Below are positions 14,980 to 50,006 of a stretch of DNA of 64,000 bases, one piece after another (position 1 is the stretch's first letter; each line of letters starts with the position of its first letter). The stretch is from an uncultured bacterium. Its GTDB lineage: Bacteria; Bacteroidota; Bacteroidia; J057; JADKCL01. The DNA lies in assembly GCA_963923035.1 (NCBI GenBank), contig CAWUKT010000025.1, positions 2,163 to 66,162 of the forward strand, written 5' to 3'. Under the pieces are notes generated by a model. The model saw nothing but the letters and a program-made list of their open reading frames with translations. It had not been told where the DNA came from and searched no databases. Both the position numbers and the translations under genes were made by a program.

Positions 14980-15063
14980 GCCCGCCCAATTTTATTTCTC
15001 GTTCCCCTCCCCTTGCCAAATCAATTCACTGTGTTTACGGGTCTGTTTCAAAGATCGCTTGGC

Positions 15064-15147
15064 GCGTCCAGCGTCGAGGTGGGCGCGTCCAGCGCCGAGG
15101 CGGAATCGTCCAGCGTCGAGCTGGGCCCGCCCAGCCATTGGGCGGAG
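15064..15147. repeat. Tandem 21-bp repeat, 4 units (GCGTCCAGCGTCGAGGTGGGC consensus)
   Basis: Units start at 15064, 15085, 15106 and 15127. Unit 1 vs 2 matches at 17/21, and 1 vs 3 at 19/21. Unit 4 is degenerate. Confidence 0.75.
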
Positions 15148-22657: not shown

Positions 22658-24769
22658 ATGCGCATCATTTGCTTCCTCTTGCTCTCGGTCGTCTCCCTTT
22701 CCGGACAACCGCTTCCGGAAGCATTTCGGGCCTCAGATTTTGCCCGGACGGTAGGCCTGCGCGAACCTGTCCCCTCCCAACGCATTTGCCGGGACTTTTT
22801 TGAGGTCCTCGCCGAACACAATGTGCCTCCGCCCCCAATGGTCGAAGGTCGCTATTACATCACCAACGAAATCGACCTCGCCACCCAGCTGCTTTCTCCG
22901 GTGTACAACCGCCATGTCCTCTGGGTCCTGCATTTTCCGCCTGGCACCTACGAACTGACCCGCCAACAAGAAATTCTCTACGACAACCTCGTGATCCAGG
23001 GCGAGGGCCCTGGCCAAACCCACTTCGTGGCCAATGAAGGCATTGGCAACTGCTTCAATGTGCTGGGACGCATCGACGAGGACCAGGCTTGGGTCGTCCA
23101 CGGCCAGGACGGCCAGTCGTGGTTCCACCTCTACGAACGCCCCGAAGCGCCCGCTCCCCTATTCCCCGGCCAGTTCGTATTCCTGTCCCGTGCCGATCCC
23201 GCACCCAGTTGCAAACCCGCCAGCGTCGGGCAGATCGTTCAGTTGGGGAACCGCAACGGTCCCCAATGGAGCACCACGCATCCCCTGCGCATCGATTTCC
23301 CCTCGGCTTCCGCCCGGCTCCAACCGATGAGACCCCGCCGCAATGTGGGCTTCGAAAACTTCAGCCTGGACGCCACCGGCCGGGATTTTGAATCGGCCCG
23401 GAGCCAGGCCAGCAATTTCTCCTTCCAATACGTGGTAAATGGCTGGGTCCGCGGCGTGGAAAGCGTGAAACCGCCCTACCAGCATGTCCGCATCGACAAA
23501 TCGTCCAACATCGAAGTCTCGGGTTGCCACTTCCGGGATGCCCACCGCCACGATGGCGGCGGAGGCGGCCGTGGCTACGGAATCAATTTCCAGAATGCGG
23601 CCGGCGAATGCCTCATTGTCAACAATGTCTTCGAGCAGCTGCGGCACGCCATCGTCTTTCAATACGGCTCCAATGGCAATGCGGTCGCCTACAACTATAC
23701 CCTGAACAATGAACCCGAGGGCGACAAGGGCCTTGAGGATTTGATTTTTCACGGGGCCTACCCGTTTCGGAACCTGGTCGAGGGGAATTCGGTGGAGGAA
23801 ATCGAATTTGACCTGGCCAATGGCTGGAATGGGCCCTATAACCTGCTCTACCGGAACCACGTCCGCACCAAGGGCATTCGTTCCCAATCCAATTTGAGTA
23901 CCGGGTGCCGGAAGTGGTCCCGGACCAAATCGATTGCGGTGGTGGGCAATGTGACCGATCAATGCGTGAATTTGGCGCGGGGCGATCATTTTGAGGCGGT
24001 GAACCAGTCTTCGGGGGATCGGTGTTCCCCGGATGCGGCCCCGCAGGATTGGCCGGCCAGCTGGATGTATGATGAACGGCCGGACTTCTTTCCAGCCGGG
24101 GTGCCGTGGCCGCAGGCGGGGCCGGATTCGGAGAACCAGGACTTGAGTCCGGCGGGCTTGCGCTATTTGTCGGGCGGCGCGACGACGTATTGGGCAGGCG
24201 AGGATTGCCTGCCATGGGGTACCGGAGCTCCGTTTCGGGCGGAGGTCTATGTGGATACCTGCCGCGACAGCGGCGTGGACAGCCCCGGCAAGCTGATCCT
24301 CTGGATTCAAGGTGGCCAGGGTCCCTACGACATCCAATGGCCTCCCCAGTTGACTCCCAATGGCGATTTCTCCGCAATATTTACCGACAGCGGTCCTTAT
24401 CAAATCCAGGTCCGGGACCGGCAGGGACAAGCCCTGAACCTTACGGGCGATTTACCCGATTGCATTCCTGCTGCTTTCCCTCCCTTTTCCTCCCATTCCA
24501 GCGCCCAGATTCCCTTTTTGGCCAGCATTTTCCCGAACCCCTCCTCCGGCCCCGCTCAAATTTTCCTCTGGCTTCCCTCCCACGCCCAGCCCTCCATTGA
24601 CCTTTTTTCCTCCACCGGCCATTTCATTTCCTCCATTTCCCTGCCCCAACCCCTCGCACCCGGCCACCACCGCATTGATTTACCTACGCCTACCTTCTCA
24701 ACGGGCATCATGTACTGCCGCATCACCTGGAACGATCAGGTCGAAGTCCTGAGGATCGTCCGGCAATGA
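22658..24769 (+). CDS. Secreted right-handed beta-helix (pectate-lyase-superfamily-like) protein with T9SS C-terminal domain
   Basis: 703 aa. Signal peptide, repetitive beta-helix-like region (GGGGRGYGINFQNAAGECLIVNNVFEQLRHAIVFQYGSNGNAVAYN), and the tail IFPNPSSGPAQIFLW...MYCRITW. Confidence 0.82.
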   Translation: MRIICFLLLSVVSLSGQPLPEAFRASDFARTVGLREPVPSQRICRDFFEVLAEHNVPPPPMVEGRYYITNEIDLATQLLSPVYNRHVLWVLHFPPGTYELTRQQEILYDNLVIQGEGPGQTHFVANEGIGNCFNVLGRIDEDQAWVVHGQDGQSWFHLYERPEAPAPLFPGQFVFLSRADPAPSCKPASVGQIVQLGNRNGPQWSTTHPLRIDFPSASARLQPMRPRRNVGFENFSLDATGRDFESARSQASNFSFQYVVNGWVRGVESVKPPYQHVRIDKSSNIEVSGCHFRDAHRHDGGGGGRGYGINFQNAAGECLIVNNVFEQLRHAIVFQYGSNGNAVAYNYTLNNEPEGDKGLEDLIFHGAYPFRNLVEGNSVEEIEFDLANGWNGPYNLLYRNHVRTKGIRSQSNLSTGCRKWSRTKSIAVVGNVTDQCVNLARGDHFEAVNQSSGDRCSPDAAPQDWPASWMYDERPDFFPAGVPWPQAGPDSENQDLSPAGLRYLSGGATTYWAGEDCLPWGTGAPFRAEVYVDTCRDSGVDSPGKLILWIQGGQGPYDIQWPPQLTPNGDFSAIFTDSGPYQIQVRDRQGQALNLTGDLPDCIPAAFPPFSSHSSAQIPFLASIFPNPSSGPAQIFLWLPSHAQPSIDLFSSTGHFISSISLPQPLAPGHHRIDLPTPTFSTGIMYCRITWNDQVEVLRIVRQ

Positions 24770-26871: not shown

Positions 26872-28671
26872 TTACAGCTTCACAATTTTCAATACGGCAC
26901 TGCCGTCCTCTCCCCTTACCCGAACCGAGTAAACCCCGGGGGCCAGATCGCCCATGTCAAGCTGGAGGTAGCGCTGGCCTTTCCATTGGCTCGTTTGCAG
27001 AACCCTTCCCTGGAGGTCCACAATTTCGACCTCTAATTCCCACATGACTTTCCCAAATTCAAGTTTCAAAACCTGTCCCACCGGATTGGGGAAGGCCTCA
27101 ACAGTCGTGCCCAACGTATTCCGGGAGCCAATTCCGAGGGTAATGTCGATGCATTCAGAACGAATGGTGCATCCATTCAGGGTCACATCCACCGCAAAAC
27201 TACCCGTGGAGGTAATGGCGAAGGTCTGCCCGGTCTGCCCCGCAATCGGCTGGCCGGAAATGCAATCTATCCACTGGTAAGTCGCTCCATTCTGAATGGC
27301 GATCAATACCCCACTGTTGTTGGTGACGGCATTGTCGACATTGGAAACGGCCAGCTCGGTGGTGACGATGCTGTCACATCCGGCCGTCGTGGAGAGCGTG
27401 TCCACGTAGACCCCGGCGGTGGTTTGGAAGGCCCCTCCGACAAGAATGGAATCGCCCGAGCAAATGGTATCGTTCACCGAGGCACTCGCCGGAGCCAGCA
27501 CCGTCAAGGTCGTCGTGACGGTACTGTCACACCCGTTTCCAGCCGTCAGGACATCCGTATAGGTCCCGGCCGTGGTCTGGAAAGCGCCGCCTACAAACAA
27601 GCTGTCGCCCTGGCAAATCGATGCCGAAGCGCTGCTCTGGCTGCTGGGAAGGACCGTCAGCGTCGTTTCGACCGTACTGTCACAACCCGCGGGGGTGGTA
27701 AAGACATCGGTGTAAACACCGGAAGTAGTTTGGAACGCCCCTCCCACAAACAGGCTGTCCCCATCACAAATGATCGCACCACCAATTATCACAGGACTGG
27801 GATTGACGGTCAAATCGGTGATGATGATTGAATCGCAACCGCCGTTGTCGGTGAGGGAATCGGTGTACAATCCGCTCGAGGTCTGGAAGCCACCGCCCAC
27901 GAAGAGGCTGTCTCCATCGCAGATGGAGGCGCTGGCATTGGTGGTCGTCGGCGAACATCCCGGAGCGGCCGTGATGGTCACATCGTCGATGGAGAAGGCC
28001 GGATCCGCTCCCGTGGTGGAAATATTGTTCACAAATCGGAATCCGAAGCGCAAAGTGGGCTGGTTGTCGAACGCCGGATTGGTGACCGTCTGCTGAATCC
28101 AACTGACCTGCCCAAAATAACTCGAAATCGGTGCTGTCACCTGGGTCCATGAGGTTCCGCCATTGGTGCTGTAATGGAGCTCACCAATTGAAAATGAAGA
28201 CATGGCTCCTATCCACCAAAAGGTCAGCGTCACATTGGTCCGCCCCACGGTGTTCACATCGTTGGTCATTCGCGCGAAATTGCTTTCGGCCCCCTGACAG
28301 GTGCCATCCGCCGGTTGGTAGTTGGCGTTCAGGACATTGTCGTTAGCCGCTTCGTCGGCCAGCAGGTGCAGGTAATTTCCGTTGGCATTCGAGATGGTCA
28401 TCGGCTGAGGAGGGGTATTGGCTACCGTGAATGTAAATGGAAAGCCAAGACAAATCAGCGTGCCCGATCCTCCTACATAGGTACTGTTAATGACCCAATC
28501 GTTGAACCCTCCGGGATTACCGCCCAGATCGGTGGTATTGAGGGTAAAAGAGGTGGGAGTGCCTTCAAAATCTTCAAAAAAGAGGGTGTCCTGGGCGGAA
28601 AGGGTAAAAAATCCTCCGCAACCAAGCAACAGCAAGAGGGTAAGCGTAAATTTTGAGGTGTTGATTTTCAT
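26872..28671 (-). CDS. Secreted protein with four tandem Cys-containing ~48-aa modules and T9SS C-terminal domain
   Basis: I start at MKINTSKFTLTLLLLLGCGG (28671). There are four repeats of IC-x-GDS-x-FVGG-x-FQT-x-x-G-x-YTD...GCDS-x-V-x-T-x-LTV, then the tail FPNPVGQVLKLEF...GVYSVRVRGEDG. Confidence 0.85.
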   Translation of the reverse strand: MKINTSKFTLTLLLLLGCGGFFTLSAQDTLFFEDFEGTPTSFTLNTTDLGGNPGGFNDWVINSTYVGGSGTLICLGFPFTFTVANTPPQPMTISNANGNYLHLLADEAANDNVLNANYQPADGTCQGAESNFARMTNDVNTVGRTNVTLTFWWIGAMSSFSIGELHYSTNGGTSWTQVTAPISSYFGQVSWIQQTVTNPAFDNQPTLRFGFRFVNNISTTGADPAFSIDDVTITAAPGCSPTTTNASASICDGDSLFVGGGFQTSSGLYTDSLTDNGGCDSIIITDLTVNPSPVIIGGAIICDGDSLFVGGAFQTTSGVYTDVFTTPAGCDSTVETTLTVLPSSQSSASASICQGDSLFVGGAFQTTAGTYTDVLTAGNGCDSTVTTTLTVLAPASASVNDTICSGDSILVGGAFQTTAGVYVDTLSTTAGCDSIVTTELAVSNVDNAVTNNSGVLIAIQNGATYQWIDCISGQPIAGQTGQTFAITSTGSFAVDVTLNGCTIRSECIDITLGIGSRNTLGTTVEAFPNPVGQVLKLEFGKVMWELEVEIVDLQGRVLQTSQWKGQRYLQLDMGDLAPGVYSVRVRGEDGSAVLKIVKL

Positions 28672-28925
28672 ACGTTTTGCAAGTGACTGTCCCAATAAGG
28701 TAATAAAAAGAAAGGTGGAGACAAGGGGATGAAATAGTTTACCGGAGGAAATGAAATGGCTGGGAAAAGGGAAGGTCGGGAAAAGAGGGGGTAGAAATCA
28801 TTCGGGCAAGCCGGGCCAGGGGATTTAGCCCCGAAAAGGCAACTATCAGTTTACACCAAAAATAAACATACTATTGCCATATAGGTCAGACTTACTATCA
28901 AAAAGCTCCGAAAACGGAGCGAAAT

Positions 28926-29200
28926 GGTGGAAGGTTGGTTAGGATTGGTGGAAACTTGGATAGTTTTTGTAGAAACTTCCGTATCGGGAGTGGAAACTTC
29001 CATGTTTTTGGTGGAAAGTTGGGCCCGATCAGTCGAAGTTTCTACCGATCGTGCCCGTTATGGGAGTGTCATTGGTAGAAGTTTCGACAAATGGGGCCCA
29101 ACTTTCTATGTTTTGGGTGGAAGCGTGGACCAATTTGGTGGAAAGTCGCAGCTCCGCCGTGGAACGGCCGGGCTACTCAATAGAAGGTCCTAGCATTTCC
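28926..29200. repeat. 21-bp-phased tandem array, ~13 units, core GT(G/A/C)GAA(A/G)(C/G)TT(C/G)(C/G)
   Basis: Core starts at 28927, 28948, 28969, 28990, 29011, 29032, 29075, 29117, 29138, 29159 and 29180. Degenerate units sit near 29051 and 29096. Spacing is exactly 21 bp, apart from one extra nt between 29032 and 29075. Confidence 0.85.
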
Positions 29201-29368
29201 AGGGAGGGCCGCGCCAGGAAAGTAAAAGGGTGAAGCTCCACCGTGCAAACTTCCTCTCTTGAGCCGGAAAAGAGAGGGGGCGCCGTCCAGGCCGCCATTT
29301 TTTAAGCTCCCTTTTTCCCATTGAAAACTCCCTTCCCGCCCTTCTAATATTCTTCCTAATTTAGCCGC

Positions 29369-30013
29369 ATGAGTTCATCCCCCCAACGCGGTCAATTCAT
29401 CGTCTTTGAAGGCATCGATGGCAGTGGCAAATCCACGCAGGTGCGCCGACTCGCCCAACGCCTGGAATCTGAAGGCTTGTCCGTTCATACGACCTTTGAA
29501 CCGACCAAATACCGCATTGGCTCCATCCTGCGCCGGATTCTCACCGGCCAGGAGCACGCGCATGAGGCCACCATCGCGGCGCTGTTTTCAGCCGATCGGC
29601 TGGACCATATCCACCATCCCGACTACGGGATGGACGGACTCCTGGACCGTGGGACCACGGTCATTTGCGACCGCTACCTCTTTTCTTCCTACGCCTACAA
29701 TACCCAATCCACTCCCCTCCAGTGGGTCTACCAATTGAATGCTGAAGCGGCGGAGGCCCTCCCCGCCGACCTGACCATTTTCCTCGACCTCCCTCCTGCG
29801 GTCGCCATGGAGCGCATCCAGCAGAACCGAACCAGCGTCGACCACTACGAATCCCTGGACACCCTCCAAGGCGTCTATGACCGGTACCAGCAGGCATTTT
29901 CGGAAAAGGGGAAGCCGGAAAAAATTCACCGCATCGACGCCCAACTGGACATGGATGCGGTGAGTGAATTGATTTGGGAGCGGGTCACGCCCCTGTTTAC
30001 CACCAACGCTTAG
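29369..30013 (+). CDS. tmk: Thymidylate kinase
   Basis: 214 aa. P-loop FIVFEGIDGSGKSTQ and a DRY-type segment (ICDRYLFSSYAY). Confidence 0.93.
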   Translation: MSSSPQRGQFIVFEGIDGSGKSTQVRRLAQRLESEGLSVHTTFEPTKYRIGSILRRILTGQEHAHEATIAALFSADRLDHIHHPDYGMDGLLDRGTTVICDRYLFSSYAYNTQSTPLQWVYQLNAEAAEALPADLTIFLDLPPAVAMERIQQNRTSVDHYESLDTLQGVYDRYQQAFSEKGKPEKIHRIDAQLDMDAVSELIWERVTPLFTTNA

Positions 30014-31698
30014 AACAAACCGGTGATCTGACCGTCGGCGTCGATGTCGATTTTTTCGGCACTGGGCGTGCTTGGGAGACCCGGCATCCGCAACATATTT
30101 CCGAGGATCGGAATCACGAATCCTGCCCCCGCTGCAATTTCGATTTCCCGCACCGTCATTTCGAAGCCTTCCGGCCGTCCCAGCAGTTTGGGGTTGTCGG
30201 AAAATGAGCTCTGGGTCTTGGCCATGCAAACCGGGAGCTTTTCGAGGCCCAGGCGGTTGATCCGCTTGATGTTCAGCCGGGCCTTCGGCTGGAAGACCAC
30301 CGATCCGGCTCCGTAGACCTTCTTGGCGACGGCTTCGATTTTGTTCGCGACCGAATCTTCCCAATCGTAGATCGGCTGGTAACGGCCGGTAAATCCATTG
30401 ACGGCGGCGACGACTTCGGAGGCGAGGTCCTTCATACCAGCTCCGCCGTGCTCCCAACCTTCCGCGATGGCCACCCGGGCACCCAATGATTCCACGTGGG
30501 CCTTCAGCCAATCGAGTTCTTCCTGGGTATCGCTGACAAAGCGGTTGATGGACACCACGGCCGGAACGCCGTAGAGATTGATGTTCTCGAGGTGCTTTTC
30601 GAGGTTGACGACGCCCTTTTTCAGTGCTTCCAGATCGGGCTGCTTCAAATCCGCCAGGGGCTTGCCGCCGTGGTACTTGAGCGCGCGCACCGTGGCCACC
30701 AGCACAATGGCGCGGGGAGACAGGCCCGCATAGCCACATTTGATATTGAGGAACTTTTCGGCGCCGAGATCGGCGCCAAAACCGGCCTCGGTCACGACGT
30801 AATCGCTGAGGCTCAGGCCCATCTTGGTCGCGATGACCGAATTGGTGCCCTGGGCGATATTGGCGAAGGGGCCGCCGTGGATGATGGCGGGATTGCCTTC
30901 AAGGGTCTGGACGAGGTTGGGCTTGATGGCGTCTTTGAGGAGCGCCGTCATGGCACCGTGGGCATTCAAATCCCGGGCGTAGACCGCTTTGCGGTCATAG
31001 GTATCGCCGATATAGATATTGCCAATCTTCTCCTTGAGGTCGGCCAGGTCCTTGGCCAGGCACAAGATGGCCATGATTTCGGAGGCCGCCGTGATGTTAA
31101 AGCCTTCTTCCCGGGGAACGCCGCCGCTTTTTCCGCCCAACCCTACCACAATGTTCCGCAACGACCGGTCATTCATGTCCATCACCCGCTTCCACACCAC
31201 CGTCCGCGGATCAATCCCCAGGCTCCGCTTGGAGTTCTGGATATTGTTGTCGATCAACGCTGAAAGCAGATTGTTTGCCTTTTCGATGGCAGAAAAATCC
31301 CCGGTAAAGTGGAGGTTGATTTCCTCCATGGGCACGACCTGGGAATAGCCTCCGCCAGCCGCTCCTCCTTTGATGCCAAATACCGGCCCCAGAGAAGGTT
31401 CCCGCAGGACCACCATCGCCTGTTCGCCGATCTGGTTCAGGCCCTCCGTCAATCCAATGGACGTCGTGGTCTTGCCCTCACCGGCCGGTGTGGGCGTGAT
31501 GGCAGTTACCAGGACCATTTTCCCATTTCCCGCTTTCTCCTCATCAATCAAATTCAGGGGGAGTTTGGCTTTGTAGCGGCCATACATCTCGATCCCATCT
31601 TCTTCAATGCCGAGGTTGTGGGCAATGTTGCGGATGGGCTGCATAGAAGCCGCCTGGGCGATCTCAAGATCGCTGAGGTAGGTCTTTTGAGTAGACAT
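30010..31698 (-). CDS. fhs: Formate--tetrahydrofolate ligase
   Basis: 562 aa. TPTPAGEGKTTTSIGL nucleotide-binding motif and family-wide similarity along the full length. Confidence 0.97.
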   Translation of the reverse strand: MSTQKTYLSDLEIAQAASMQPIRNIAHNLGIEEDGIEMYGRYKAKLPLNLIDEEKAGNGKMVLVTAITPTPAGEGKTTTSIGLTEGLNQIGEQAMVVLREPSLGPVFGIKGGAAGGGYSQVVPMEEINLHFTGDFSAIEKANNLLSALIDNNIQNSKRSLGIDPRTVVWKRVMDMNDRSLRNIVVGLGGKSGGVPREEGFNITAASEIMAILCLAKDLADLKEKIGNIYIGDTYDRKAVYARDLNAHGAMTALLKDAIKPNLVQTLEGNPAIIHGGPFANIAQGTNSVIATKMGLSLSDYVVTEAGFGADLGAEKFLNIKCGYAGLSPRAIVLVATVRALKYHGGKPLADLKQPDLEALKKGVVNLEKHLENINLYGVPAVVSINRFVSDTQEELDWLKAHVESLGARVAIAEGWEHGGAGMKDLASEVVAAVNGFTGRYQPIYDWEDSVANKIEAVAKKVYGAGSVVFQPKARLNIKRINRLGLEKLPVCMAKTQSSFSDNPKLLGRPEGFEMTVREIEIAAGAGFVIPILGNMLRMPGLPSTPSAEKIDIDADGQITGLF

Positions 31699-31764
31699 AA
31701 TCAGATTTTAGGATTCACACGCGGCCAAGATAGGTCTTTTTAGCCCGATCGTCAATGGACCTAA

Positions 31765-31798
31765 ATATGAAAAGGAGGAAACCGTCGGCTTCCTCCTT
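31765..31798 (-). terminator. Putative terminator after the tail-fibre/T9SS gene
   Basis: Perfect 9-bp stem AAGGAGGAA / TTCCTCCTT (31772-31780 / 31790-31798). The tail on the minus strand is only moderately T-rich. Confidence 0.5.
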
Positions 31799-31822
31799 AC
31801 AACTATGAGAAACGAGAATGTA

Positions 31823-33271
31823 TTACTTGGACTTGGTGATGATCATGCGCTTGACGTCGACTTCTTTGCCATCGGCGATGAGGGCGTAGAGGTACATGCC
31901 AGCGCCAAACAGGTTGCCGTCGAGCTGGTAAGCGCTTTCACCTCGGTCGGTGATGGCCGCTTCGAGGACCTGGTTGCCCTGCATATCATAAATGTAAAGG
32001 GTGGCATTGTTGACGGAGGACGGCAGGTAGTAGCCAATCTCAGTCACGCTCTCAAACGGATTCGGGTTGTTCTGGTACAGCTTGGGGAGGAGTTCCTGGC
32101 TGCCGGTCTCGTCGCGGGTAAACTTGGACACCTGCTGCTGGAGCTCTTCGATGAGGGCTTTTTGCTCCTCGATCTGGACCTGCTGCTCCTGGATGGCTTT
32201 GACCAGAATCGGGCTCATGAGCGCATAGTTGATGCCCATGCGGGTGTCTTCGGTAACTTTTACCGGGACCAATTCGCCTTCTTCGTTCAATTCGAAGTCT
32301 TCAGCCGGATCGTAAACGATGTCCGGGAGGATCTCATTGACTTCCTGCGCGATCAGACCAACCTGGGTGCCTTTTTCGGGCTGGGCCTTCCAATCGTAGG
32401 TGACCGGACGGAGGTCCATGACTTCGTTCAGACCGTAGGTAGCGTCCTGGATATTGGTTTTGTCGCGGCGGTCAGAGGTCTGGATCACCCCGTTGGTGGC
32501 GAAGACGTCGTCCCAGCGGAAGGTGGCGTTTCCGAGGTCACGGGAATTGTTGACGGAAGGAACAATGGTCGAAGAACTGGTGGTGACGAAGCCACCGCCA
32601 TCTTCAAAGTATTCTACGGAGCCAAACCGAACCCGGCCGTTCACGAAGAGGCGTTCGGTGGTCAGCGGGGTTCCGCCGATGCCGACATTGCCATTGCTTT
32701 CGATCTGCATGCGGGTCACAGGTGCCGCCGTGGGAGAACTGCCATAGTTGAACAGCAGGCGGTTGTTGGAGCTGGTACCGCCCCAAACAATCGCGAGGTC
32801 CCGGGTGGTGGAATTCCGCTCGATCAGGTTGAAGATGCCAAAGTTCTGGTTCCATTGGATCCGTTTGCCGTAGACACTCGCGCCGATTCCGGCGGGGCCG
32901 GAACCGATGCCGATCCACTTGGCCGTGCTGGAGATATTGCCGAAGCCACCGGCCTCGAGGTGACCCAGGTTGTTGTTCGAGCCAAAAGGACGGAACAAAG
33001 CAAGGGCGTTGCTGGTATTGGAACGGGCAACGTCAAAAACTTGCTGACCATTGAAGGAGATCCCGAAGGAAGTCGAAGACCCATTGGGGAAGCGAATGGT
33101 ATAATCATCCTGAACATCAAAGCGAACATCTCGACCGTCAAAGACTGTAAATTGACCGGCCAAATCGCCATCGTCAAGATTTAAGACTTCAAAAGTTCCA
33201 GTTTGGGCATAAGATTTTCCTGCCCCCAGGAGGAGAAGGACTCCCAGGCAGAAGATTAGAGACTTTTTCAT
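31823..33271 (-). CDS. Tail-fibre-domain protein with peptidase-S74-type intramolecular chaperone domain, coiled coil and T9SS C-terminal domain
   Basis: I start at MKKSLIFCLGVLLLLGAGKSYAQ (33271). SDRRDKTNIQDATYGLNEVMDLRPVTYDWK...GLIAQEV is the S74 chaperone-of-endosialidase signature. This is followed by an EQQVQIEEQKALIEELQQQV coiled coil, then the NPNPFESVTEIGYYLP...GMYLYALI tail. Confidence 0.88.
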   Translation of the reverse strand: MKKSLIFCLGVLLLLGAGKSYAQTGTFEVLNLDDGDLAGQFTVFDGRDVRFDVQDDYTIRFPNGSSTSFGISFNGQQVFDVARSNTSNALALFRPFGSNNNLGHLEAGGFGNISSTAKWIGIGSGPAGIGASVYGKRIQWNQNFGIFNLIERNSTTRDLAIVWGGTSSNNRLLFNYGSSPTAAPVTRMQIESNGNVGIGGTPLTTERLFVNGRVRFGSVEYFEDGGGFVTTSSSTIVPSVNNSRDLGNATFRWDDVFATNGVIQTSDRRDKTNIQDATYGLNEVMDLRPVTYDWKAQPEKGTQVGLIAQEVNEILPDIVYDPAEDFELNEEGELVPVKVTEDTRMGINYALMSPILVKAIQEQQVQIEEQKALIEELQQQVSKFTRDETGSQELLPKLYQNNPNPFESVTEIGYYLPSSVNNATLYIYDMQGNQVLEAAITDRGESAYQLDGNLFGAGMYLYALIADGKEVDVKRMIITKSK

Positions 33272-38569: not shown

Positions 38570-39325
38570 ATGGTATTTGCAGATGTACTTACATTGCCCA
38601 AGAACGACCCAGTAGCCTTTACTTTTTTCACTGGCTACATGGCGATGTTCGCGGCTTCGGTCTTCTTCTTCTTTGAGAGAGGCCGGGTCGACAACAAGTG
38701 GAAGACCTCTATGCTGGTATCCGGTCTGATTACCGGTATCGCAGCGGTCCACTACTATTACATGCGGGATTATTACCAGGCCACTGGTGAGAACCCCACC
38801 GTCCTCCGCTACATTGACTGGACCCTTACGGTGCCGTTGATGTGTATCGAATTCTATCTCCTCCTGCGTCCCGCCGGAGCAAAGAGCAGCCTCCTTGTAA
38901 AGCTAATTGGTGCCTCAGCCCTAATGCTTGTTGCCGGTTATATCGGTGAAGCATTCACGGATGGATCCATGGCTCACTCCGTTATTTGGGGTGTGATCTC
39001 CACCATCGGTTACGTTTACATCCTGTATTCGGCCTGGTTTGGTGAAATCAAGCAGCTGGCTGCTAACAACTCTTCTCCCAAAGTACAGAAAGGTATCAAG
39101 GCTCTGGCTTGGTTCGTTCTGGTTGGTTGGGCCATCTACCCGATCGGCTACATGGCCATGCCTGGTGGTTGGCTGGGTGCTGACGGCGCTGGTCTCCTCC
39201 GTCCGTCTGACCTGGACCTCGTTTACAACGTTGGTGACGCCATCAACAAGATCGGCTTCGGTCTGGTTGTCTACGGTATCGCTATCAACGAGTCCCGGAA
39301 GGCTTCTGCCGCTACCGCAGCTTAA
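38570..39325 (+). CDS. Proteorhodopsin-family light-driven proton pump (DTE motif)
   Basis: 251 aa, 7-TM pattern. RYIDWTLTVPLMCIEF gives D/T/E at the PR D97/T101/E108 equivalents. His in VHYYYM corresponds to H75. The retinal Lys is in DAINKIGFG. Met sits at the spectral-tuning position (PR 105). Confidence 0.95.
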   Translation: MVFADVLTLPKNDPVAFTFFTGYMAMFAASVFFFFERGRVDNKWKTSMLVSGLITGIAAVHYYYMRDYYQATGENPTVLRYIDWTLTVPLMCIEFYLLLRPAGAKSSLLVKLIGASALMLVAGYIGEAFTDGSMAHSVIWGVISTIGYVYILYSAWFGEIKQLAANNSSPKVQKGIKALAWFVLVGWAIYPIGYMAMPGGWLGADGAGLLRPSDLDLVYNVGDAINKIGFGLVVYGIAINESRKASAATAA

Positions 39326-39378: not shown

Positions 39379-39692
39379 TTTTGTTTCCTCCAGCCCCCTC
39401 CCCTTCTTTCGTTTTTCTGATTTGTCCTATCTCTTCATTGTCCCTTCTACCTGCTGAGCGTTCCTGATTTTCCTTTCCCTTCGTCTCCTCCCTTTATTTC
39501 CCCTTCCTTTCTCTCACTCCCTTCATTTCCCCAGACCAATCCCTTCCAATTCTCCTTCCTCCATTCTTTCCCTCCAATCCATCTGACATTTTCCCACTCC
39601 CATTTACCTTCCCTCACTTATCATGCTCCTCAACCTTCCAGTGACTCCTCCCTCCTTTCGGTTAACCGTTTCTCCTATCTCACATCAATAAA
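39379..39692 (+). other. G-depleted polypyrimidine (C/T-rich) tract on the plus strand
   Basis: By direct count, purines are 15-20% per 60-nt line between 39421 and 39600, and only 3 G occur in 39481-39600. No ORF of 60 aa or more starts inside it. Confidence 0.85.
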
Positions 39693-41893: not shown

Positions 41894-42394
41894 TACACGC
41901 GAATTAGAATGATAGAAGTTGTTGAGAGGATTATACTCAGTTACTGTAGTTCAGAGTTAGTTCGACAAAAGTCAACTTTCACCGATTACATTCCAAAGAT
42001 GCACTTCCATGTAATATTTTCCAAACAATTTTAAGAAAAATTGCACATTCACTTTTATTCTTTCCTCCACCCCCCATTTTCCGCAATCTGAGCCTTTTGG
42101 GACCCTTATGACAAAATATTATTCGGCTAAGAAGCGCTTTTATCACTAATAATGAGCTAAAAAGCCTTCCAAAGTCTCATTTCCCCGCCCTTCAAATATG
42201 TAGGAGTTTCGAGCTAGGGTCCAAAAATACAGAGCCAGGAAACCCCTCTTTTTACACACTTCTAACAAAAACCTTTCATAAATGCCCCTAATCCCACCCT
42301 TCCATAGTCAACACCACAGAAACCCTCCATGTAATAAAAAAGACTAAAATGTAAATTTTTGATTTTGCTTGATGGGAACTTCCATCAAATGAGG

Positions 42395-44365
42395 TTAGGA
42401 TTCGGACGGGAAGATGAATTCGAAGGTCGTTCCGGCCCCGACTTTGGTATACAGGGCGATCTCTCCGTTCAATCGATCCGCCAACGACTTGACAATGGCG
42501 AGCCCCAGACCGTGGGAACTCTCGCCGCCCGTGGGACGGGCACTCAGCTTCTGAAATTTCTGGAAGAGCCGCTTTTGGTCCTCGGGCGAGATCCCCGGTC
42601 CTTCATCCTTTACATATAAGGTAGGCCGTCCCCCCAATTTCCGCACTCCGACCTCCACTTCCTTGCCCGCCGGGGAGAACTTGATCGCATTCGAAATGAA
42701 GTTGTCGAGGATGCGCCCGATGTCGCGGGGATCGGTTTCAACCTGCAAATCCCCCAATTCGAGGTTGGGACGGAGGTGAATCTCCTTTTTCTGGGCGTAG
42801 GGCTGGAATGAACTGATGCGGTTGTATACAAAGTCCCGCAGAGACAGCTCTACGGAATTGCCGTTGGATTCGGGCAAGTTACTGGCCTCCGCCTCGGTGA
42901 TCATCAAGAGGTCCTGGATCAGCTCCGCTCCCCCCTCGCTGGTTTTCCCGATCAGTCCCAGCATTTCCTGCCCCTGGGCAGAAAGGCCATCTTCTGACTT
43001 CAACATGCCGAGGATGGCCATGATCTTCTGGAAAGGAGCCTTGAGGTCGTGCGCCACAAAGCCGATCAGGCCATTTTTCTCGTGCATAGCAGCTTCCAGG
43101 GCCTGGTTCTTCTGGTCGACGGCATCTTTCTGCCGCAATATTTCTTTTTGCTGAGATTTGATCTTCTCATTGGTCAGCGACAGCTCCCGGTAGGCGGTCC
43201 GAACCTTCCGGTTCAGGCGCATGTTCACGAAAAACAGCCCGCCCAGCAGCAGGGCGATGGCTCCCAAGCCCACAATCAGGGTCCACTGGAACCGTTGGCG
43301 GGATTCGAGGACCGCCTGGTCCTTTAACAACAGTTCCCGGTCCTTTTCCAGAATCTCCAACTTTGCCGCTTTCTGGTCGGCATCGAAGACTGCGATGACT
43401 TCGTTCAGCTTGTTTTCTTCCCGGCTTTGAAAAATGGAATCCTTGCGGGCATTGTAATCTTGGATGGTCTCGTAGGCCCGACGGTAATTTCCCCGGGCAT
43501 ATTCCAATTGGGACCGAAACAGGAGCGCTTCGTGGCGTTCATCAAAATAGGAGGTCCAATTCGTCGCAGCCATGGTCGAATCGAGGTATTTCTCGGCCAG
43601 TTGGTACCGCCCGAGATCGATATAGGCCATCGCTATATTGTTATAGGTATTGGGCAGTCCGGAGGGATAGGCTTCGTGCTTTAGTCGCTTGGCCTCCATG
43701 AGGTGATCCAGGGCTTCTTCGTATTGGGCCAACTCGGTCAGCAGAAAGCCATAGTTGTTGTGGACCATGGAGTTCCTGAGGAGGTTATCGGGGTCGGGAT
43801 AACGGGTCAAAATGGTCTCGTACAAATCCAGCGCCTTGCTGTTGCTGTCCATGTCGTTGTAGGCGGACGCAAGGTTGATCAGGGGATAGGAAAGCTGGGG
43901 ATTCTCCATTTGGGAGAGCAAACGGAACGAGGTGAGGAAATACTCCTCACAATTGGAGTAGAGCTTGGTGGACTTGTGGAGGTTGCCAAGGGCGTTGTAG
44001 ACCCAAGCGACCCGGTTGGTATCCTTGCGCTGACGCGCCACAGCCATACACCGCTGGTAGTTTTCGAAGGCCTGGTCAAACAGGCCGGCGGATTCGTAGA
44101 GATTTCCCAGCCGGTAGGACGAAACGCTCATCCCCCGCTTGAAATCCAGCGAATCGGAAATGTCCAGCGCCAATTTCATGGATTGAACCCGAACCGGAAG
44201 GTCATCTTTGCCCAATTCATCCTCCAGGCCCCACAATTTTTCCACCAGCACCGTATCGCGATTATTTTCTTCCAACAATTGCTTCAATTGTTCACTCCCG
44301 CTTGCAGCACACAATACTGCAGACGACGTCAACAATACCAAACAAAAAAACAATCGTTGTATCAT
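42395..44365 (-). CDS. TPR-repeat sensor histidine kinase
   Basis: 656 aa. Signal peptide, TPR-like periplasmic/extracytoplasmic repeats, one TM helix (WTLIVGLGAIALLLGGLFFV), a coiled coil, H-box HDLKAPFQKI, and HATPase_c motifs (NFISNAIKFS, VKDEGPGI, GLGLAIV). Confidence 0.9.
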   Translation of the reverse strand: MIQRLFFCLVLLTSSAVLCAASGSEQLKQLLEENNRDTVLVEKLWGLEDELGKDDLPVRVQSMKLALDISDSLDFKRGMSVSSYRLGNLYESAGLFDQAFENYQRCMAVARQRKDTNRVAWVYNALGNLHKSTKLYSNCEEYFLTSFRLLSQMENPQLSYPLINLASAYNDMDSNSKALDLYETILTRYPDPDNLLRNSMVHNNYGFLLTELAQYEEALDHLMEAKRLKHEAYPSGLPNTYNNIAMAYIDLGRYQLAEKYLDSTMAATNWTSYFDERHEALLFRSQLEYARGNYRRAYETIQDYNARKDSIFQSREENKLNEVIAVFDADQKAAKLEILEKDRELLLKDQAVLESRQRFQWTLIVGLGAIALLLGGLFFVNMRLNRKVRTAYRELSLTNEKIKSQQKEILRQKDAVDQKNQALEAAMHEKNGLIGFVAHDLKAPFQKIMAILGMLKSEDGLSAQGQEMLGLIGKTSEGGAELIQDLLMITEAEASNLPESNGNSVELSLRDFVYNRISSFQPYAQKKEIHLRPNLELGDLQVETDPRDIGRILDNFISNAIKFSPAGKEVEVGVRKLGGRPTLYVKDEGPGISPEDQKRLFQKFQKLSARPTGGESSHGLGLAIVKSLADRLNGEIALYTKVGAGTTFEFIFPSES

Positions 44366-46626: not shown

Positions 46627-46873
46627 GTAATGATTGTTAAATTGAAAATGGATTAGTTAAGGCATGCAAAGGGGGGCTTGGTTCGGAAACCAAGGGTCAC
46701 CCAAAGCGTAAATCATGGTAGAGGATAAAGTCCTGAGGCCATTTTGGAAATGGCGCCAAGTGTTTGTTACAGGTCAATAGTAACAGTTTTCCTCTAGCTG
46801 AACCGCCATTTTTTTCGTTTTTAGTACAATCACCCGCACAACTACGTAGTTTTACGGGGTCAATTCTCCGCAA

Positions 46874-48121
46874 ATGCGTCTACTGTACCAGCGCTACGAA
46901 ACCTGGATGGTCAATTTGATTGACCAACGCCACCAAGGCCAGCAACAACTCCTGTTACCGGCCATTGCGGTATTCCTGATGGCCACCATCGGAGGGTTCT
47001 TCTCCTTTCTCTTCTCCCTGGTCTTCGTTTCGGCGGCGGAAGATTCGTTTTTCTGGATGTTCTTGTTCCAGGTGTTCTTCAGCGTTGTCTTCCTCATTTC
47101 CTTCGTTCAGGGCTGGGTTTCTCTGAAAACCCTCATTTTCATCTTCGTTTTCTCCAATTCCCTGTTCACCAGCTCGGTCGCTTTCGCGGACGGCGGGTTG
47201 GATTCTCCTTTTCTGCCCTGGCTTTCCCTGGCTCCCTTCGTCAGCTTCCTGTTGATGGGCTACCGGGGATTCGTGGTTTGGGGCGGCGTCGCCATTGGCC
47301 TTTTCATCCTGTTTGTTTTCCAACCCCGGCTCCTCCCTCCGCCCCCTCCGATTCCCAATCAATCGGTCAGCCTGTATTCTTATACCGGTCTCTACCTCGC
47401 GGAAATGCTGACGGTGGGGCTGATCGTATGGGTCCGGCGCCGGTCAGAACGGACGGCCCGCCAGCTCGATGCGAATTTTCAGGCGCGGCAGGATTTGGAA
47501 AAGGCCCGCTCAGCGGGCGCAATGGCCGAGCGGGAACAAATTTTGTCCCGGCTGCGGGAGCACCTGTCTCCCCGTTTGGAAGCGGTGCGGGAGGCCCAGA
47601 AGAAATGGTTTGCCGAGATGGGAACGCCGGTGGATGGTGCCAATGCCGAATTCAGGATTGGGGCAATTCAGGAAGAGGCGGAACGGATCGTACAGGACCA
47701 TCCCCGGCCGCCGGATGCGGCCGAAAACTTGCAGAATGCGATCACAGGCCTGGCGGATGAATTGCGTCGGGGCTTGGGCATCATGGTTGAATTGCGGGTT
47801 CCGGCCCAGCCGCTCATGCCCATGACGCCCGGGAACCTTCACCTTTTCCGGATTGTCCAGGAGGCCTGCCGGAACATCGCCCGGCACGCCCAGGCGAAAA
47901 AGGTCCGCATCTTCCTGCACAGCGATGATGACCAGCTCCTCCGGCTCGAAATCCACGACGATGGCATTGGCTTCCATCCCCAATCGACCCTGGGCCAGGG
48001 GCTCCAAAACATGAAAGACCGCGTGGCCATGATGGGCGGGCGGTTTTCCCTGGACACGGCCCCCGGCCGTGGCACCCGGATTTTCTGCGATTTTCAACCT
48101 TTGATGCGGCCCATGTCATGA
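46874..48121 (+). CDS. Membrane sensor histidine kinase (HisKA_3/NarX-type) with divergent H-box and intact ATPase domain
   Basis: 415 aa with a multi-TM N-terminus carrying a GGLDSPFLPWL motif. The DHp segment EREQILSRLREHLSPRL replaces the canonical ExxRIARELHD. Canonical N-box QEACRNIARHA, G1 HDDGIGF and G2 GQGLQNMKDRV are present. Confidence 0.85.
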   Translation: MRLLYQRYETWMVNLIDQRHQGQQQLLLPAIAVFLMATIGGFFSFLFSLVFVSAAEDSFFWMFLFQVFFSVVFLISFVQGWVSLKTLIFIFVFSNSLFTSSVAFADGGLDSPFLPWLSLAPFVSFLLMGYRGFVVWGGVAIGLFILFVFQPRLLPPPPPIPNQSVSLYSYTGLYLAEMLTVGLIVWVRRRSERTARQLDANFQARQDLEKARSAGAMAEREQILSRLREHLSPRLEAVREAQKKWFAEMGTPVDGANAEFRIGAIQEEAERIVQDHPRPPDAAENLQNAITGLADELRRGLGIMVELRVPAQPLMPMTPGNLHLFRIVQEACRNIARHAQAKKVRIFLHSDDDQLLRLEIHDDGIGFHPQSTLGQGLQNMKDRVAMMGGRFSLDTAPGRGTRIFCDFQPLMRPMS

Positions 48122-49356
48122 GCCAGCGCATCTCCATATCGCCCCTCAACCGACTCAGCCGCATTTTCCTCCGCAGCTTTCCCCCTCGGAGCCAGGAACT
48201 TCAACGGGCCTGGGTCCTCACTTATCTCGGAGGGATGGTGCAGCTCTTCACCCTCTTCTTCATTGTCCTGTACTCCCTCCTCGAGCTTCCCGTACCGGCC
48301 ATCATCTGCCTGTATGGGTTTCTGAGCGTATTTGTGGAGTACTGGATGATTTTTCGGAAAAAATGGACCCGGCTGGCGGCTCATTTTTATTGCTTGACCA
48401 CGGTCATCTTCTTTTGCGGCTTCTCTTGGTTCTCGGGCGCCATTGATTCTCCCTTTATTCCCTGGCTGGCCACCGCCCCGATTGTCGCGGCCATCACCCT
48501 CCCCTCCCGCGATACCTTGCTCTGGGTCCTCATCGGCCTCGCCCTGATGGCGGCCCAGGTGGTGCTGGAGCCCTATGCTCCGTCCAAATCCTACCTGGGT
48601 TACCCCGAAATGGCGTCCTCCATTCGCGGAATTGCCTACGGGTCATTTTTCTTGTTCGCCCTCTCCATCATCCTGATCTACGACCAAGTCCGCAAGGATT
48701 TGGACCGTTATGAACGTCTGGCGGCGCGGGAAGGGGAAGCGGAAGGAATGGACCTCCGGGAACACCTAGCGGGTCGGGAAGCCGAACGGCAGCGCATTGC
48801 CCGGGAATTCCACGATCATCTGGGAACGGTCTTGACGGTACTGCGGCTGCGACATCAAGGCCTGCCGGAAGAATCGCCCGCCGCCCAGACCTTTTATAAG
48901 GAGTTGGCTGAAGTCGCCGGTTTCCTCAACTCCATTTCGCGGGGCTACTCGGTCCATTCATTGCGGGATTTTGGGTTGGAGAAAGTGGTGGAGAAAATGT
49001 TGTTGGAATTGGAGGCGGAAAAGGGGATTGAAACGGAATTGATCGTAGATGCCGGGGAGACGACTAATTTTTCGGTGCTGGAAATTGATTTTTTCAGAAT
49101 GGTACAGATATTGGTCGAAGTGTGCCGGCTAGATCCCCAGGTACAATTTGTCTCCTTCCAATTCCTCACCCTGGACCAAAGGGTTCAGTTTTTGGCTGAG
49201 TTGGAGGGACTTTCTTCCCTTGAAATCGCCACTCAGCATCCGGGCTGGACCGAATTGCTGGACCGGGGCCGGGTGGAAGGCGCAGACCTGACCGTTGAGT
49301 TTTCCCCGCAGCGGGGCCTCACCCTCATTTATGAAAACAAACTAACGCAGACATGA
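48118..49356 (+). CDS. Paralogous membrane histidine-kinase-like protein with canonical H-box but degenerate ATP-binding domain
   Basis: 412 aa. Same TM architecture (GAIDSPFIPWL) and a canonical HisKA_3 box EAERQRIAREFHDHLGTVL. The C-terminal domain lacks recognisable N/G1/G2 boxes (VQILVEVCRLDP, LAELEGLSS, HPGWTELLDRG). ATGA overlap with the upstream gene. Confidence 0.8.
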   Translation: MSQRISISPLNRLSRIFLRSFPPRSQELQRAWVLTYLGGMVQLFTLFFIVLYSLLELPVPAIICLYGFLSVFVEYWMIFRKKWTRLAAHFYCLTTVIFFCGFSWFSGAIDSPFIPWLATAPIVAAITLPSRDTLLWVLIGLALMAAQVVLEPYAPSKSYLGYPEMASSIRGIAYGSFFLFALSIILIYDQVRKDLDRYERLAAREGEAEGMDLREHLAGREAERQRIAREFHDHLGTVLTVLRLRHQGLPEESPAAQTFYKELAEVAGFLNSISRGYSVHSLRDFGLEKVVEKMLLELEAEKGIETELIVDAGETTNFSVLEIDFFRMVQILVEVCRLDPQVQFVSFQFLTLDQRVQFLAELEGLSSLEIATQHPGWTELLDRGRVEGADLTVEFSPQRGLTLIYENKLTQT

Positions 49357-50006
49357 AAACGATCAAATTGATGCTGGCCGATGATCACGAGTTGATCCGA
49401 TCCGGAATCCGCCACCTCCTTCAACAGGAACCTTCGGTGGTTGTGGTAGGAGAAGTGAGCAGCGGACAGGAACTCCTGCGGGAAGTGGAGAGCCAACAGC
49501 CCGATGTGGTGCTGATGGACATTGAGATGCCCCAGATGAATGGATTGAAGGCGGCGGAAGAGGTTTTGAAGAAATTCCCTGATTTGAAAATTATCCTGTT
49601 GACGATGTATACTGAGGAGCATTACCTGGAACGTTGTCTGGAGATCGGTTGTCGGGGGTATTTGCTGAAGCAATCGGATACGGGGGAAATCCTGGAAGCC
49701 ATCCGGCAGGTCTACCAGGGCGAGGTCTATTTTGGGGCGGGTGTCTCCAAGCACTTCCTGCAACGTTCTGTTACGCGCTCCGGCCTGAACCCCAAGCTGG
49801 GGAAGGCCCGGCTGTCCCGTCGGGAGACGGAAGTCCTCCATTTGATCGCGGAAGGGCTGAGTTCCAAGGAAATTGCCGACAAGCTGTTCATCAGCGTGCG
49901 GACCGTGGAAACGCACCGCAGCAATATTCTGCACAAGCTGGAGCTTCAGAATACGGCCCAATTGGTCCGCTATGCGATCAAGCACAAGCTGGTCGATCTC
50001 GGCTGA
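49353..50006 (+). CDS. NarL/FixJ-family response regulator (REC + LuxR HTH)
   Basis: 217 aa. DD...D (LADDHE, VLMDIEMP) receiver signature and C-terminal LSRRETEVLHLIAEGLSSKEIADKLFISVRTVETHR. ATGA overlap with the upstream kinase-like gene. Confidence 0.93.
   Translation: MKTIKLMLADDHELIRSGIRHLLQQEPSVVVVGEVSSGQELLREVESQQPDVVLMDIEMPQMNGLKAAEEVLKKFPDLKIILLTMYTEEHYLERCLEIGCRGYLLKQSDTGEILEAIRQVYQGEVYFGAGVSKHFLQRSVTRSGLNPKLGKARLSRRETEVLHLIAEGLSSKEIADKLFISVRTVETHRSNILHKLELQNTAQLVRYAIKHKLVDLG

Follow-up and report, generated by a model that had tools for sequence, protein, structure and literature searches.

A phase-locked 21-bp direct-repeat array in the divergent intergenic region upstream of tmk in an uncultured Bacteroidota bacterium

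Phased arrays of short repeats are known from several bacterial systems, including the iterons of plasmids and phages (for example those of the Rep_3 type), direct-repeat partition centromeres (parC of the R1/pSK41 type and sopC), operator arrays, minisatellites, and DnaA-box clusters (oriC, datA, and the Bacillus DnaA-box clusters). On direct-repeat centromeres, a single kind of small DNA-binding protein assembles into a filament or superhelix. Response regulators of the ArcA type also recognize direct repeats in phase, LytTR repeats of 9 bp lie 12 bp apart, and ArgR boxes are spaced 21 bp apart. Here we describe an array in a 64,000-nucleotide stretch of DNA (hereafter the window) from an uncultured bacterium of the Bacteroidota (assembly GCA_963923035.1, contig CAWUKT010000025.1). 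A 697-bp divergent intergenic space, between a gene whose product carries a type IX secretion system (T9SS) tail and the thymidylate kinase gene tmk, holds a phase-locked 21-bp array at window positions 28927-29200. The array belongs to a familiar kind, the intergenic tandem direct-repeat array, and is not a new category. We tentatively favor reading it as a same-face array of protein-binding sites serving the two divergent promoters.

Written in 21-bp rows, the sequence shows 13 register positions in a 21-bp phase interrupted by one +1 slip, and the array can be divided as follows.

28927-29052, plus strand: left block, six direct 21-bp units beginning at 28927, 28948, 28969, 28990, 29011 and 29032.
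29075-29200, plus strand: right block, units at 29075, 29096, 29117, 29138, 29159 and 29180, with a phase of +1 relative to the left block.
29201-29284, plus strand: vestigial in-phase units at 29222 (GTAAAA), 29243 (GTGCAAACTTCC) and 29264 (CCGGAAAA).
29014-29106, no strand assigned: central imperfect palindrome, with 36-nt arms at 29014-29049 and 29071-29106 that are 83% complementary.

The hexamer GT(G/A/C)GAA begins at all six starts of the left block and, to the right of the slip, at 29075, 29117, 29138 and 29159. The core is gone at register positions 29054 and 29096, and position 29180 reads ATAGAA rather than GT.GAA. Beyond the hexamer, TT is favored at core positions 9-10 and TTG or TGG is favored 5' of the core, so that the unit alignment and the position weight matrix (PWM) give an extended consensus of approximately TTGGTRGAARnTT. 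Units of the left block, which score 15.9-22.2 by PWM, combine the core GT(G/A/C)GAAnnTT and the TTG/TGG extension with variable spacers of 8-11 nt. The vestigial units are the decaying right edge of the array, and a direct repeat relates positions 29150-29164 to 29234-29248 at a spacing of 84, or 4 x 21.

The phase and the core of the array are far beyond chance. The two-unit pattern GTRGAAnnTT-N11-GTRGAAnnTT matches five times against 0.03 expected, and none of 100 shuffles reaches five. All seven plus-strand pairs of GT[GAC]GAA spaced 21 bp apart in the 64-kb window fall inside the array, and base autocorrelation peaks only at lags of 21, 42, and 63 (0.48, 0.46, and 0.41). An earlier note, made from the sequence alone, had described a 21-bp-phased array of about 13 units, with decayed units and a single extra nucleotide between 29032 and 29075; the array is real, the core is indeed lost at 29054 and 29096, and the one slip lies where the extra nucleotide had been placed. 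The core starts given in that note hold at the ten GT.GAA positions but not at 29180, and its example units are correct. A scan with the PWM built from the array units found no comparable second cluster elsewhere in the 64-kb window. The only other hits above 13 bits on both strands in the window are two isolated core-like palindromes, TTGATGGGAACTTCCATCAA at 42369-42388, just past the stop of a histidine-kinase gene (42395-44365), and CCGGTGGAAACTTCGATGAA at 4971-4990, inside mutS. A second, unrelated 21-bp tandem repeat (GGCGCGTCCAGCGTCGAGGTG, 3.6 copies, 77% matches) occupies 15061-15135, in a G+C-rich space between two convergent genes.

The inverted repeat at 29014-29106 is new relative to the earlier note. 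Its loop of 21 nt (29050-29070) includes a mini-hairpin, CCC-GTTAT-GGG, and the palindrome contains both the decayed unit 29054 and the +1 slip. PWM matches occur on both strands at 29029/29048 and 29072/29091. Given the complementarity of the arms, units 29075 and 29096 are reversed copies of units 29032 and 29011 that still read as plus-oriented because the core GTCGAAGTTTCTAC is itself pseudo-palindromic. The pseudo-dyad proposed previously is also borne out, as GAAACTTC and GAAGTTTC are reverse complements. Because the slip falls in the 21-nt loop between the arms, we infer that it is a product of the inverted duplication and not a random insertion. The spacer of unit 29096 also matches that of unit 28990 at 9 of 11 positions, a direct block similarity, and the presence of both direct and inverted block similarity therefore indicates that the array grew through both types of duplication. 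Predicted folds of both strands are more stable than those of shuffled sequences (z = -6.1 and -6.6), with the hairpin of the central palindrome dominating the predicted fold on each strand.

The units have not diverged evenly. Across the 10 core columns the units share a mean pairwise identity of 0.60, which falls to 0.33 across the 11 spacer columns; random sequence gives 0.26. The variance in conservation among columns exceeds that of a uniform-decay null (P = 5e-5, assuming a star phylogeny), and the five most conserved columns lie within six adjacent positions (P = 0.005). The register is kept over approximately 270 bp of near-saturated spacers with only one slip, that in the loop of the inverted duplication. 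The suggestion that conservation follows DNA phase is thus upheld, since the core is better kept than the spacers and the 21-bp register is retained. Retention of core and phase argues for a constraint on spacing along the helix, and such a constraint favors a duplex-DNA ligand over an RNA role. The contrast between core and spacer would then reflect selection, and the putative ligand would be a protein bound to duplex DNA.

The scenario that we favor, with reservations, would begin with a tandemly duplicated 21-bp unit, later extended by direct and inverted block duplications, in intergenic space that may have opened when the T9SS-tailed gene inverted relative to tmk. The 8-11-nt spacers would have drifted to near randomness, while the core of approximately 10-13 nt (TTGGTRGAARnTT) and the two-turn register of 21 bp would have been kept. 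This would leave about 11 same-face sites for one sequence-specific DNA-binding protein, which may bind cooperatively or oligomerize along one face of the helix. The resulting platform could act on the two divergent promoters via occlusion, looping, bending, or titration.

The following features flank the array.

26872-28671, minus strand: gene for the T9SS-tailed protein, 599 aa, from the gene calls (Pfam Por_Secre_tail, 1.2e-08).
28850-28905, no strand assigned: AT-rich tract, approximately 29% G+C compared with 55% for the window.
28905-28920, minus strand: terminator-like hairpin, GCTCCG-TTTT-CGGAGC followed by TTTTTG, with 6 pairs (5 of them G-C) and a loop of 4.
29253-29277: hairpin CCTCTCTT...AAGAGAGG, overlapping the vestigial in-phase units.
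29298-29303, plus strand: T6 run preceded by a weak G+C stem, conceivable as a terminator but unconvincing, and absent from the terminator scan calls.
29369-30013, plus strand: tmk, thymidylate kinase (Pfam Thymidylate_kin, 2.7e-43).

The array is upstream of both genes, approximately 170 bp from the start of tmk and 250 bp from that of the T9SS-tailed gene. The consensus TAnnTTTG is the -7 element of Bacteroides-type promoters, and a scan for it found a perfect Bacteroidetes-type -7 box (TATTTTTG, 0 mismatches) on the minus strand at 28864-28857, accompanied by a -33 element with one mismatch at a spacing of 22. Judging from its position and sequence, the TATTTTTG box is probably the promoter of the T9SS-tailed gene. 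The hairpin at 28905-28920 separates the array from this candidate promoter; the earlier note had reported it, and it proves to be terminator-like on the minus strand, where TTTTTG follows. The other hairpin noted at that time (CCTCTCTT/AAGAGAGG) and the T6 run at 29298-29303 are both present. An approximate wedge model predicts intrinsic curvature for the left half of the array, whose end-to-end ratios rank in about the lowest 5% of the window and fall below the 1% level at the left edge; this lends the binding-site reading weak support. Matches between 28761-28797 and 29300-29344 were considered as terminal inverted repeats of a miniature inverted-repeat transposable element or as the ends of an invertible segment; these candidates were rejected as the matches are not collinear, and they reflect purine- and pyrimidine-rich promoter-proximal tracts on two divergent sense strands.

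Among described systems, operator arrays (ArcA, OmpR/PhoB, BvgA/NarL-type, LytTR, and ArgR) resemble this locus in having one-face sites at a spacing of 11 or 21-22 bp upstream of promoters. The location between divergent promoters and the pseudo-dyad core TGGAA-nn-TTCCA of the best units are further points of likeness. However, operator arrays comprise 2-5 sites as opposed to the 11-13 found here, and no regulator gene is adjacent to the array. The nearest regulator is a NarL-type response regulator (49353-50006), 20 kb away. No published consensus of these regulators is known to match the unit. The consensus motifs of sigma-54, LacI, IclR, LytTR, ArgR, Spo0A, and the -35 element of extracytoplasmic function (ECF) sigma factors were considered as leads, and none is known to fit the spacing or the sequence.

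Three further assemblies contain the same species. Two of these (L001 and L230) span the array with the same unit count as the window. Within the 697-bp intergenic space, they differ from the window by two single-nucleotide polymorphisms, one of which affects the degenerate third base of unit 1. The array is not a hypervariable variable-number tandem repeat (VNTR), because the window, L001, and L230, which are independent assemblies, all have the same number of units. The third further assembly, a short-read assembly (SRR17458640), breaks inside the array, with one contig ending at 28940 (L231) and another starting at 29128 (L002). The repeats defeat the short-read assembler in this case, and such arrays may be under-represented in contig collections. 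A contig of a strain or sister species (L003, JGI 3300003881), corresponding to window 29351-31889 with 96.2% nucleotide identity, starts 18 bp before tmk, just past the array.

Gene order in more distant relatives differs from that in the window. In relatives encoding a T9SS-tailed protein that is 49-56% identical (L227, L228, and L229), the T9SS gene, tmk, and nuoJKL follow one another in tandem, with a gap of only 8-9 bp between the T9SS gene and tmk in the tightest cases. The window differs in that its T9SS gene is inverted, its tmk is followed by fhs, and its nuoJ/L lie at 50.2-53.2 kb. The tandem order in relatives shows the divergent arrangement to be derived, and the array occupies a rearrangement junction. 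The closest relative (RecN 77% identical) shares with the window the order recN, then T9SS gene. When metagenomes were scanned with RecN, only relatives at 33-44% identity were recovered. Among the sampled genomes, the array is confined to one species.

To place the array among repeats elsewhere, a pattern of three phased cores was scanned against 185,579 genomes, one per species, as the earlier note had proposed. More than 118 loci in many phyla matched, mostly as non-coding arrays, with a period of 21 bp being the commonest. These do not define a family. In a control run on a viral collection rather than on the genome collection, 23 stretches matched the true pattern, and 13, 10, 17, and 28 matched four scrambled cores of the same composition. 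Clustering of neighboring open reading frames (ORFs) returned only generic superfamilies, except for Rep_3 and ParA beside the 22-bp iterons of Acinetobacter and Psychrobacter; further neighbors of the array loci are unrelated housekeeping genes. Most matches are near-perfect repeats, coding heptads (L029, L038, and L042), or Rep_3 plasmid iterons (L024, L058, and L067), and spacer identity is 0.7-1.0 in most of them. A cross-phylum family of GTGGAA 21-bp arrays was therefore rejected, as scrambled cores are about as frequent in the viral collection and the array loci share no neighboring gene family. The loci represent the general population of 19-23-bp tandem repeats, sampled by the pattern.

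Some of these loci deserve description in their own right. Six of them (L024, L058, and L067, and also L023, L049, and L073) carry 22-bp iterons of the form GTGGAAGGTTTGTCAC(n6), adjoined by an AT-rich tract and lying near Rep3_N/Rep3_C and ParA genes, and are ordinary Acinetobacter/Psychrobacter plasmid origins that share the GTGGAAGGTT core by chance. Rossellomorea aquimaris EaN35-1 has at least four non-coding arrays (L091, ~1928-2050; L098, ~4830-4960; L053, 7893-8000; L046, ~6155-6260), each with 5-7 units of CTT-G(T/G)GGAACTTT plus 8 variable nt at a strict 21 bp. Their spacer identity is 0.36-0.45 in L091 and L098, the most diverged, and 0.60-0.73 in L053 and L046. L091 sits exactly between two convergent intrinsic terminators and has no sigma-70-type promoter. 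The R. aquimaris arrays have the architecture of the window array, with different flanking core bases. In Solibacillus silvestris SAF-065, arrays occur at 6577-7160 and 1481-1574 of L048 and at 681-810 of L050. An array of approximately 28 units reads AAA-GTRGAA-nn-TT plus a variable spacer in a 7-unit higher-order repeat, and is non-coding as judged from recurrent in-frame stops; of the two shorter arrays, one lies between mecA and coiA. The arrays in R. aquimaris and S. silvestris parallel the window array, and it is conceivable, if improbable, that all belong to an undescribed class of chromosomal arrays that the host maintains, in which the core is conserved, the spacer is free to vary, and the 21-bp phase is strict. 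Arrays of this class would be loaded with a filament of a DNA-binding protein, for example as a nucleoid-structuring, silencing, or titration platform, independent of plasmid Rep/Par systems.

Taken together, several lines of evidence weigh against the binding-site reading. When the units are modeled on a coalescent duplication tree, the null gives only a moderate P = 0.03. Unit 29096 has kept its spacer (9/11 versus 28990) and lost its core, the opposite of what selection on the core would produce. No candidate binding protein is encoded adjacent to the array (Pfam on the window ORFs), and the PWM scan of the 64-kb window revealed no clustered extra copies of the motif that would indicate a regulon. 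Comparisons with relatives are no more favorable. In relatives by Tmk (71%, 64%, and 58% identity), the region upstream of tmk is short, unrelated, and devoid of an array, and relatives by RecN (68% and 66%) have no 21-bp periodic region with the core within 10 kb. In the relative with 77% RecN identity, no phased units occur in the 321 bp up to the contig end, and the relatives with a 49-56% identical T9SS-tailed protein have no array at the T9SS gene. Arrays of this general kind are also a common background in prokaryotic DNA. Absence from relatives had been named beforehand as a result that would speak against a functional array, and it applies in part, the array being missing at the tmk, recN, and T9SS loci sampled. 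The evidence for function is internal to the array only.

The main alternative is that the array is a functionless, decaying minisatellite. Slippage or unequal recombination would have multiplied a 21-bp unit at a rearrangement junction, the copies would now be eroding, and the apparent core would reflect duplication history plus chance. We consider this explanation plausible but somewhat less likely than the binding-site reading. It would readily account for the absence of the array from every sampled relative and its place at a synteny breakpoint, for the loss of the core in two central units and at both edges, and for the higher-order block structure, direct and inverted. The abundance of 19-23-bp arrays in prokaryotic and viral DNA (10-28 stretches for scrambled cores versus 23 for the true one), the unrelated housekeeping genes beside similar arrays elsewhere, and the tree-based P of only 0.03 are also in keeping with it. 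It fits less well with spacers near saturation (0.33 versus 0.26 for random sequence) alongside a core at 0.60, with the contiguity of the conserved columns (P = 0.005), and with the lack of copy-number variation among three assemblies. Neutral drift of spacers to saturation should bring several indels, where only one slip is seen, and bacterial genomes tend to delete useless DNA. The locus resembles minisatellites and VNTRs in its tandem period of approximately 21 bp, its non-coding nature, and its presence in one lineage. Typical VNTR units, however, are near-identical and variable in copy number, whereas here the spacers are near random, the core is kept, and the count is fixed. A contingency locus or VNTR was rejected on the basis of the spacer identity of 0.33 and the equal unit count in the window, L001, and L230.

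Replication and partition elements are the described systems closest to the array in geometry. Iterons are tandem direct repeats of 17-22 bp, about two helical turns, a description that fits the array with its 13 positions at 21 bp. Like plasmid and phage iterons, such as those of the Rep_3 type, the array combines a period of about two turns (21-22 bp) with a conserved core, a looser remainder, and an AT-rich neighbor, and its core letters overlap those of GTGGAAGGTTTGTCAC in L024, L058, and L067, which lie by Rep3_N/Rep3_C and ParA. Unlike iterons, it has no initiator, partition genes, or plasmid or mobile context, and no match among 72,556 plasmids; it also has at least 13 units compared with the usual 3-9, is far more degenerate, and carries an inverted duplication in its middle. 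Direct-repeat centromeres of the parC (R1/pSK41) and sopC types likewise have about 10 or more phased direct repeats, but the array differs from them in its diverged units, its housekeeping context, and the lack of adjacent parA/parM or parR/parG-type genes.

The genetic context is that of an ordinary chromosome, with mutS, recN, tmk, fhs, a rhodopsin gene, nuoJ/L, lpxD/lpxA, and many T9SS cargo genes. Pfam searches of the neighbors and 40 window ORFs found no rep, par, integrase, dnaA, or dnaN gene and no mobile-element context in the 64 kb, and no Rep, helicase-loader, or primase family. No ParA/ParM/TubZ family and no ribbon-helix-helix or ParB family was seen among the annotated window ORFs, and blastn against the 72,556 plasmids gave no match to the array. 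Consequently, a Rep_3-like iteron origin was rejected for want of an adjacent initiator gene, the chromosomal context, and the absence of a plasmid match, and a direct-repeat partition centromere was rejected because no partition ATPase or centromere-binding-protein gene is adjacent. The array thus has iteron-like geometry without an iteron-like genetic context, and is lineage-specific.

DnaA-box clusters share with the array similarly oriented short boxes ending in CCAC and an AT-rich neighbor, but the array differs from them in its period (21 versus 11 bp) and in lacking consensus boxes, a skew switch, and conservation. Same-oriented DnaA boxes of Thermotoga maritima interact best at an interspace of 2 bp (PMC10316083), which with 9-mer boxes gives a period of 11 bp and not 21. 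Canonical boxes (TTATCCACA-like, with at most 1 mismatch) number 11 in the 64 kb against 10.2 expected, with none in 28700-29370. Cumulative GC skew stays flat over 28-36 kb and reaches its minimum at 64 kb, with no change of sign at the array, within the limited power of a 64-kb window. A chromosomal origin or DnaA-box cluster was rejected on box content, period, GC skew, and non-conservation. We therefore regard a replication element, either a chromosomal origin or DnaA-titrating cluster or the iterons of an integrated or remnant plasmid-type origin, as highly improbable. In its favor, GTTTCCACC, the reverse complement of the core, resembles TTTTCCACA-type DnaA boxes and fits 7 of 9 positions of the relaxed consensus TTWTNCACA; an AT-rich tract of approximately 56 bp (28850-28905), which could serve as an unwinding element, adjoins the array together with a hairpin; cumulative GC skew is locally lowest at about 24-30 kb; and Rep_3 plasmid iterons share the GTGGAAGGTT core and a period of about 22 bp. 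Opposed to these are the chance-level box count, the 21-bp period, the constant sign and distal minimum of the skew, and the missing genes and plasmid matches, as well as the expectation that a chromosomal origin would be conserved in relatives, which the array is not. The centromere- or iteron-like element put forward in the earlier note is accordingly not sustained, since rep, par, and dnaA genes are absent, as are DnaA boxes and a skew switch.

The array is non-coding. Six-frame translation shows no frame open across it on either strand, and the ratio of nonsynonymous to synonymous differences (pN/pS) among units is 0.78-1.07 over the six frames; shuffling the columns gives a null of 1.02 +/- 0.23. 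In the V-E frame, the conserved TT is split between two codons. Pfam has no family for the array, and a 60-aa array ORF searched against 1.84 billion protein representatives gave four weak matches, of which the two examined are translated repeat junk. A non-coding status had been claimed before and agrees with all of these tests. The argument from frame then offered, that units on the two sides of the slip read as V-E and as G-G, is weaker than stated, because a pseudogene with one frameshift would look alike. A protein-coding heptad repeat was rejected, with the frame broken by the +1 slip and stops, pN/pS near the null, and no homologue.

It is very doubtful, though worth considering, that the array is instead a relic or frameshifted copy of a small plus-strand gene with seven-residue repeats of V-E-x-x-x-x-x, starting at the ATG at 28924. 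Past selection on the protein would account for both the conserved core and the register of 21 bp, or 7 codons, and the ATG lies exactly at the array start. Variation within the hexamer is limited to one base, the wobble position of a Val codon (GTG, GTA, GTC), and when the +1 slip is allowed for, the V-E frame runs without a stop across 12 units. Nevertheless, pN/pS in that frame is 0.86, within the null, TT spans a codon boundary, and in codon 3 conservation is higher at the third position than at the other two. Such a gene is not among the gene calls of the source assemblies, its residue composition is implausible for a protein, and the Pfam and protein-representative searches gave nothing beyond the weak matches and repeat junk already mentioned.

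A role in RNA has more to be said for it but is still unlikely. On this explanation, a repeat non-coding RNA of approximately 400-450 nt, likelier from the minus strand, would end at the hairpin and U-run at 28920-28900 and present about 13 UUUCCAC (or GUGGAAA) motifs around a long hairpin at its center; it could, for instance, act as a sponge for an RNA-binding protein. The terminator-like minus-strand hairpin does stand just outside the array, where no upstream minus-strand gene needs one, a weak Bacteroidetes-type -7 box occurs on the minus strand at 29363, and the folds of both strands are far more stable than shuffles. The stability of these folds comes mostly from the central inverted duplication, however, and is equally explained by history at the DNA level; hairpins at the level of the unit are not conserved. 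A strict 21-nt register is unexpected for sponge RNAs such as CsrB and RsmZ, the promoter evidence is weak, the plus-strand terminator is unconvincing, and no homologues exist. Rfam 15 gave no match to the array even at E <= 10, the best being two microRNA models (19 bits, E 0.35-1.2), and across the whole window it returned only a tRNA, the sole tRNA of the window, at 211-284. That the unit corresponds to no described element, as had been supposed, accords with the absence of matches in both Rfam and the plasmid blastn; literature searches by sequence and keywords found nothing relevant to the array. A type III toxin-antitoxin repeat RNA (ToxI-like) was also rejected. ToxI-like RNAs consist of near-identical tandem repeats of approximately 34-45 nt, followed by a terminator and an endoribonuclease toxin gene, whereas the units here are 21 nt and degenerate, and the downstream tmk encodes an ordinary thymidylate kinase that is conserved in relatives without the array.

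If the core is a binding site, the array would be an unusually long chromosomal platform, with about 11 same-face sites before tmk and a secreted-protein gene, and, in this uncultured lineage of the Bacteroidota, would point to an undescribed filament-forming regulator. The Bacillaceae with parallel arrays can be cultivated and would then offer a test system. If it is only an eroding minisatellite, the locus is a caution that phase-locked 21-bp arrays with a shared-looking core are common background, and a cross-genome pattern search without scrambled controls would have falsely suggested a family spanning many phyla. We would like to emphasize that the significance is modest unless binding is demonstrated or the core-plus-spacer arrays of Bacillaceae prove functional.

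The window has several other features. The genes tmk (plus strand) and fhs (minus strand) converge with stop codons overlapping by 4 bp (30010-30013), leaving no room for a terminator of their own, and weak terminator-like sites occur only inside the coding sequences. By the same wedge model, the strongest predicted curvature in the window is at 46741-46781, upstream of a histidine-kinase gene (46874-48121), and at 28491-28531. A 29-bp C/T-rich tandem repeat (39467-39532, 2.3 copies) lies downstream of the rhodopsin gene (38570-39325), and C/T-rich tracts of low complexity recur between genes in this genome, including those at 24474, 22604, and 29300-29345.

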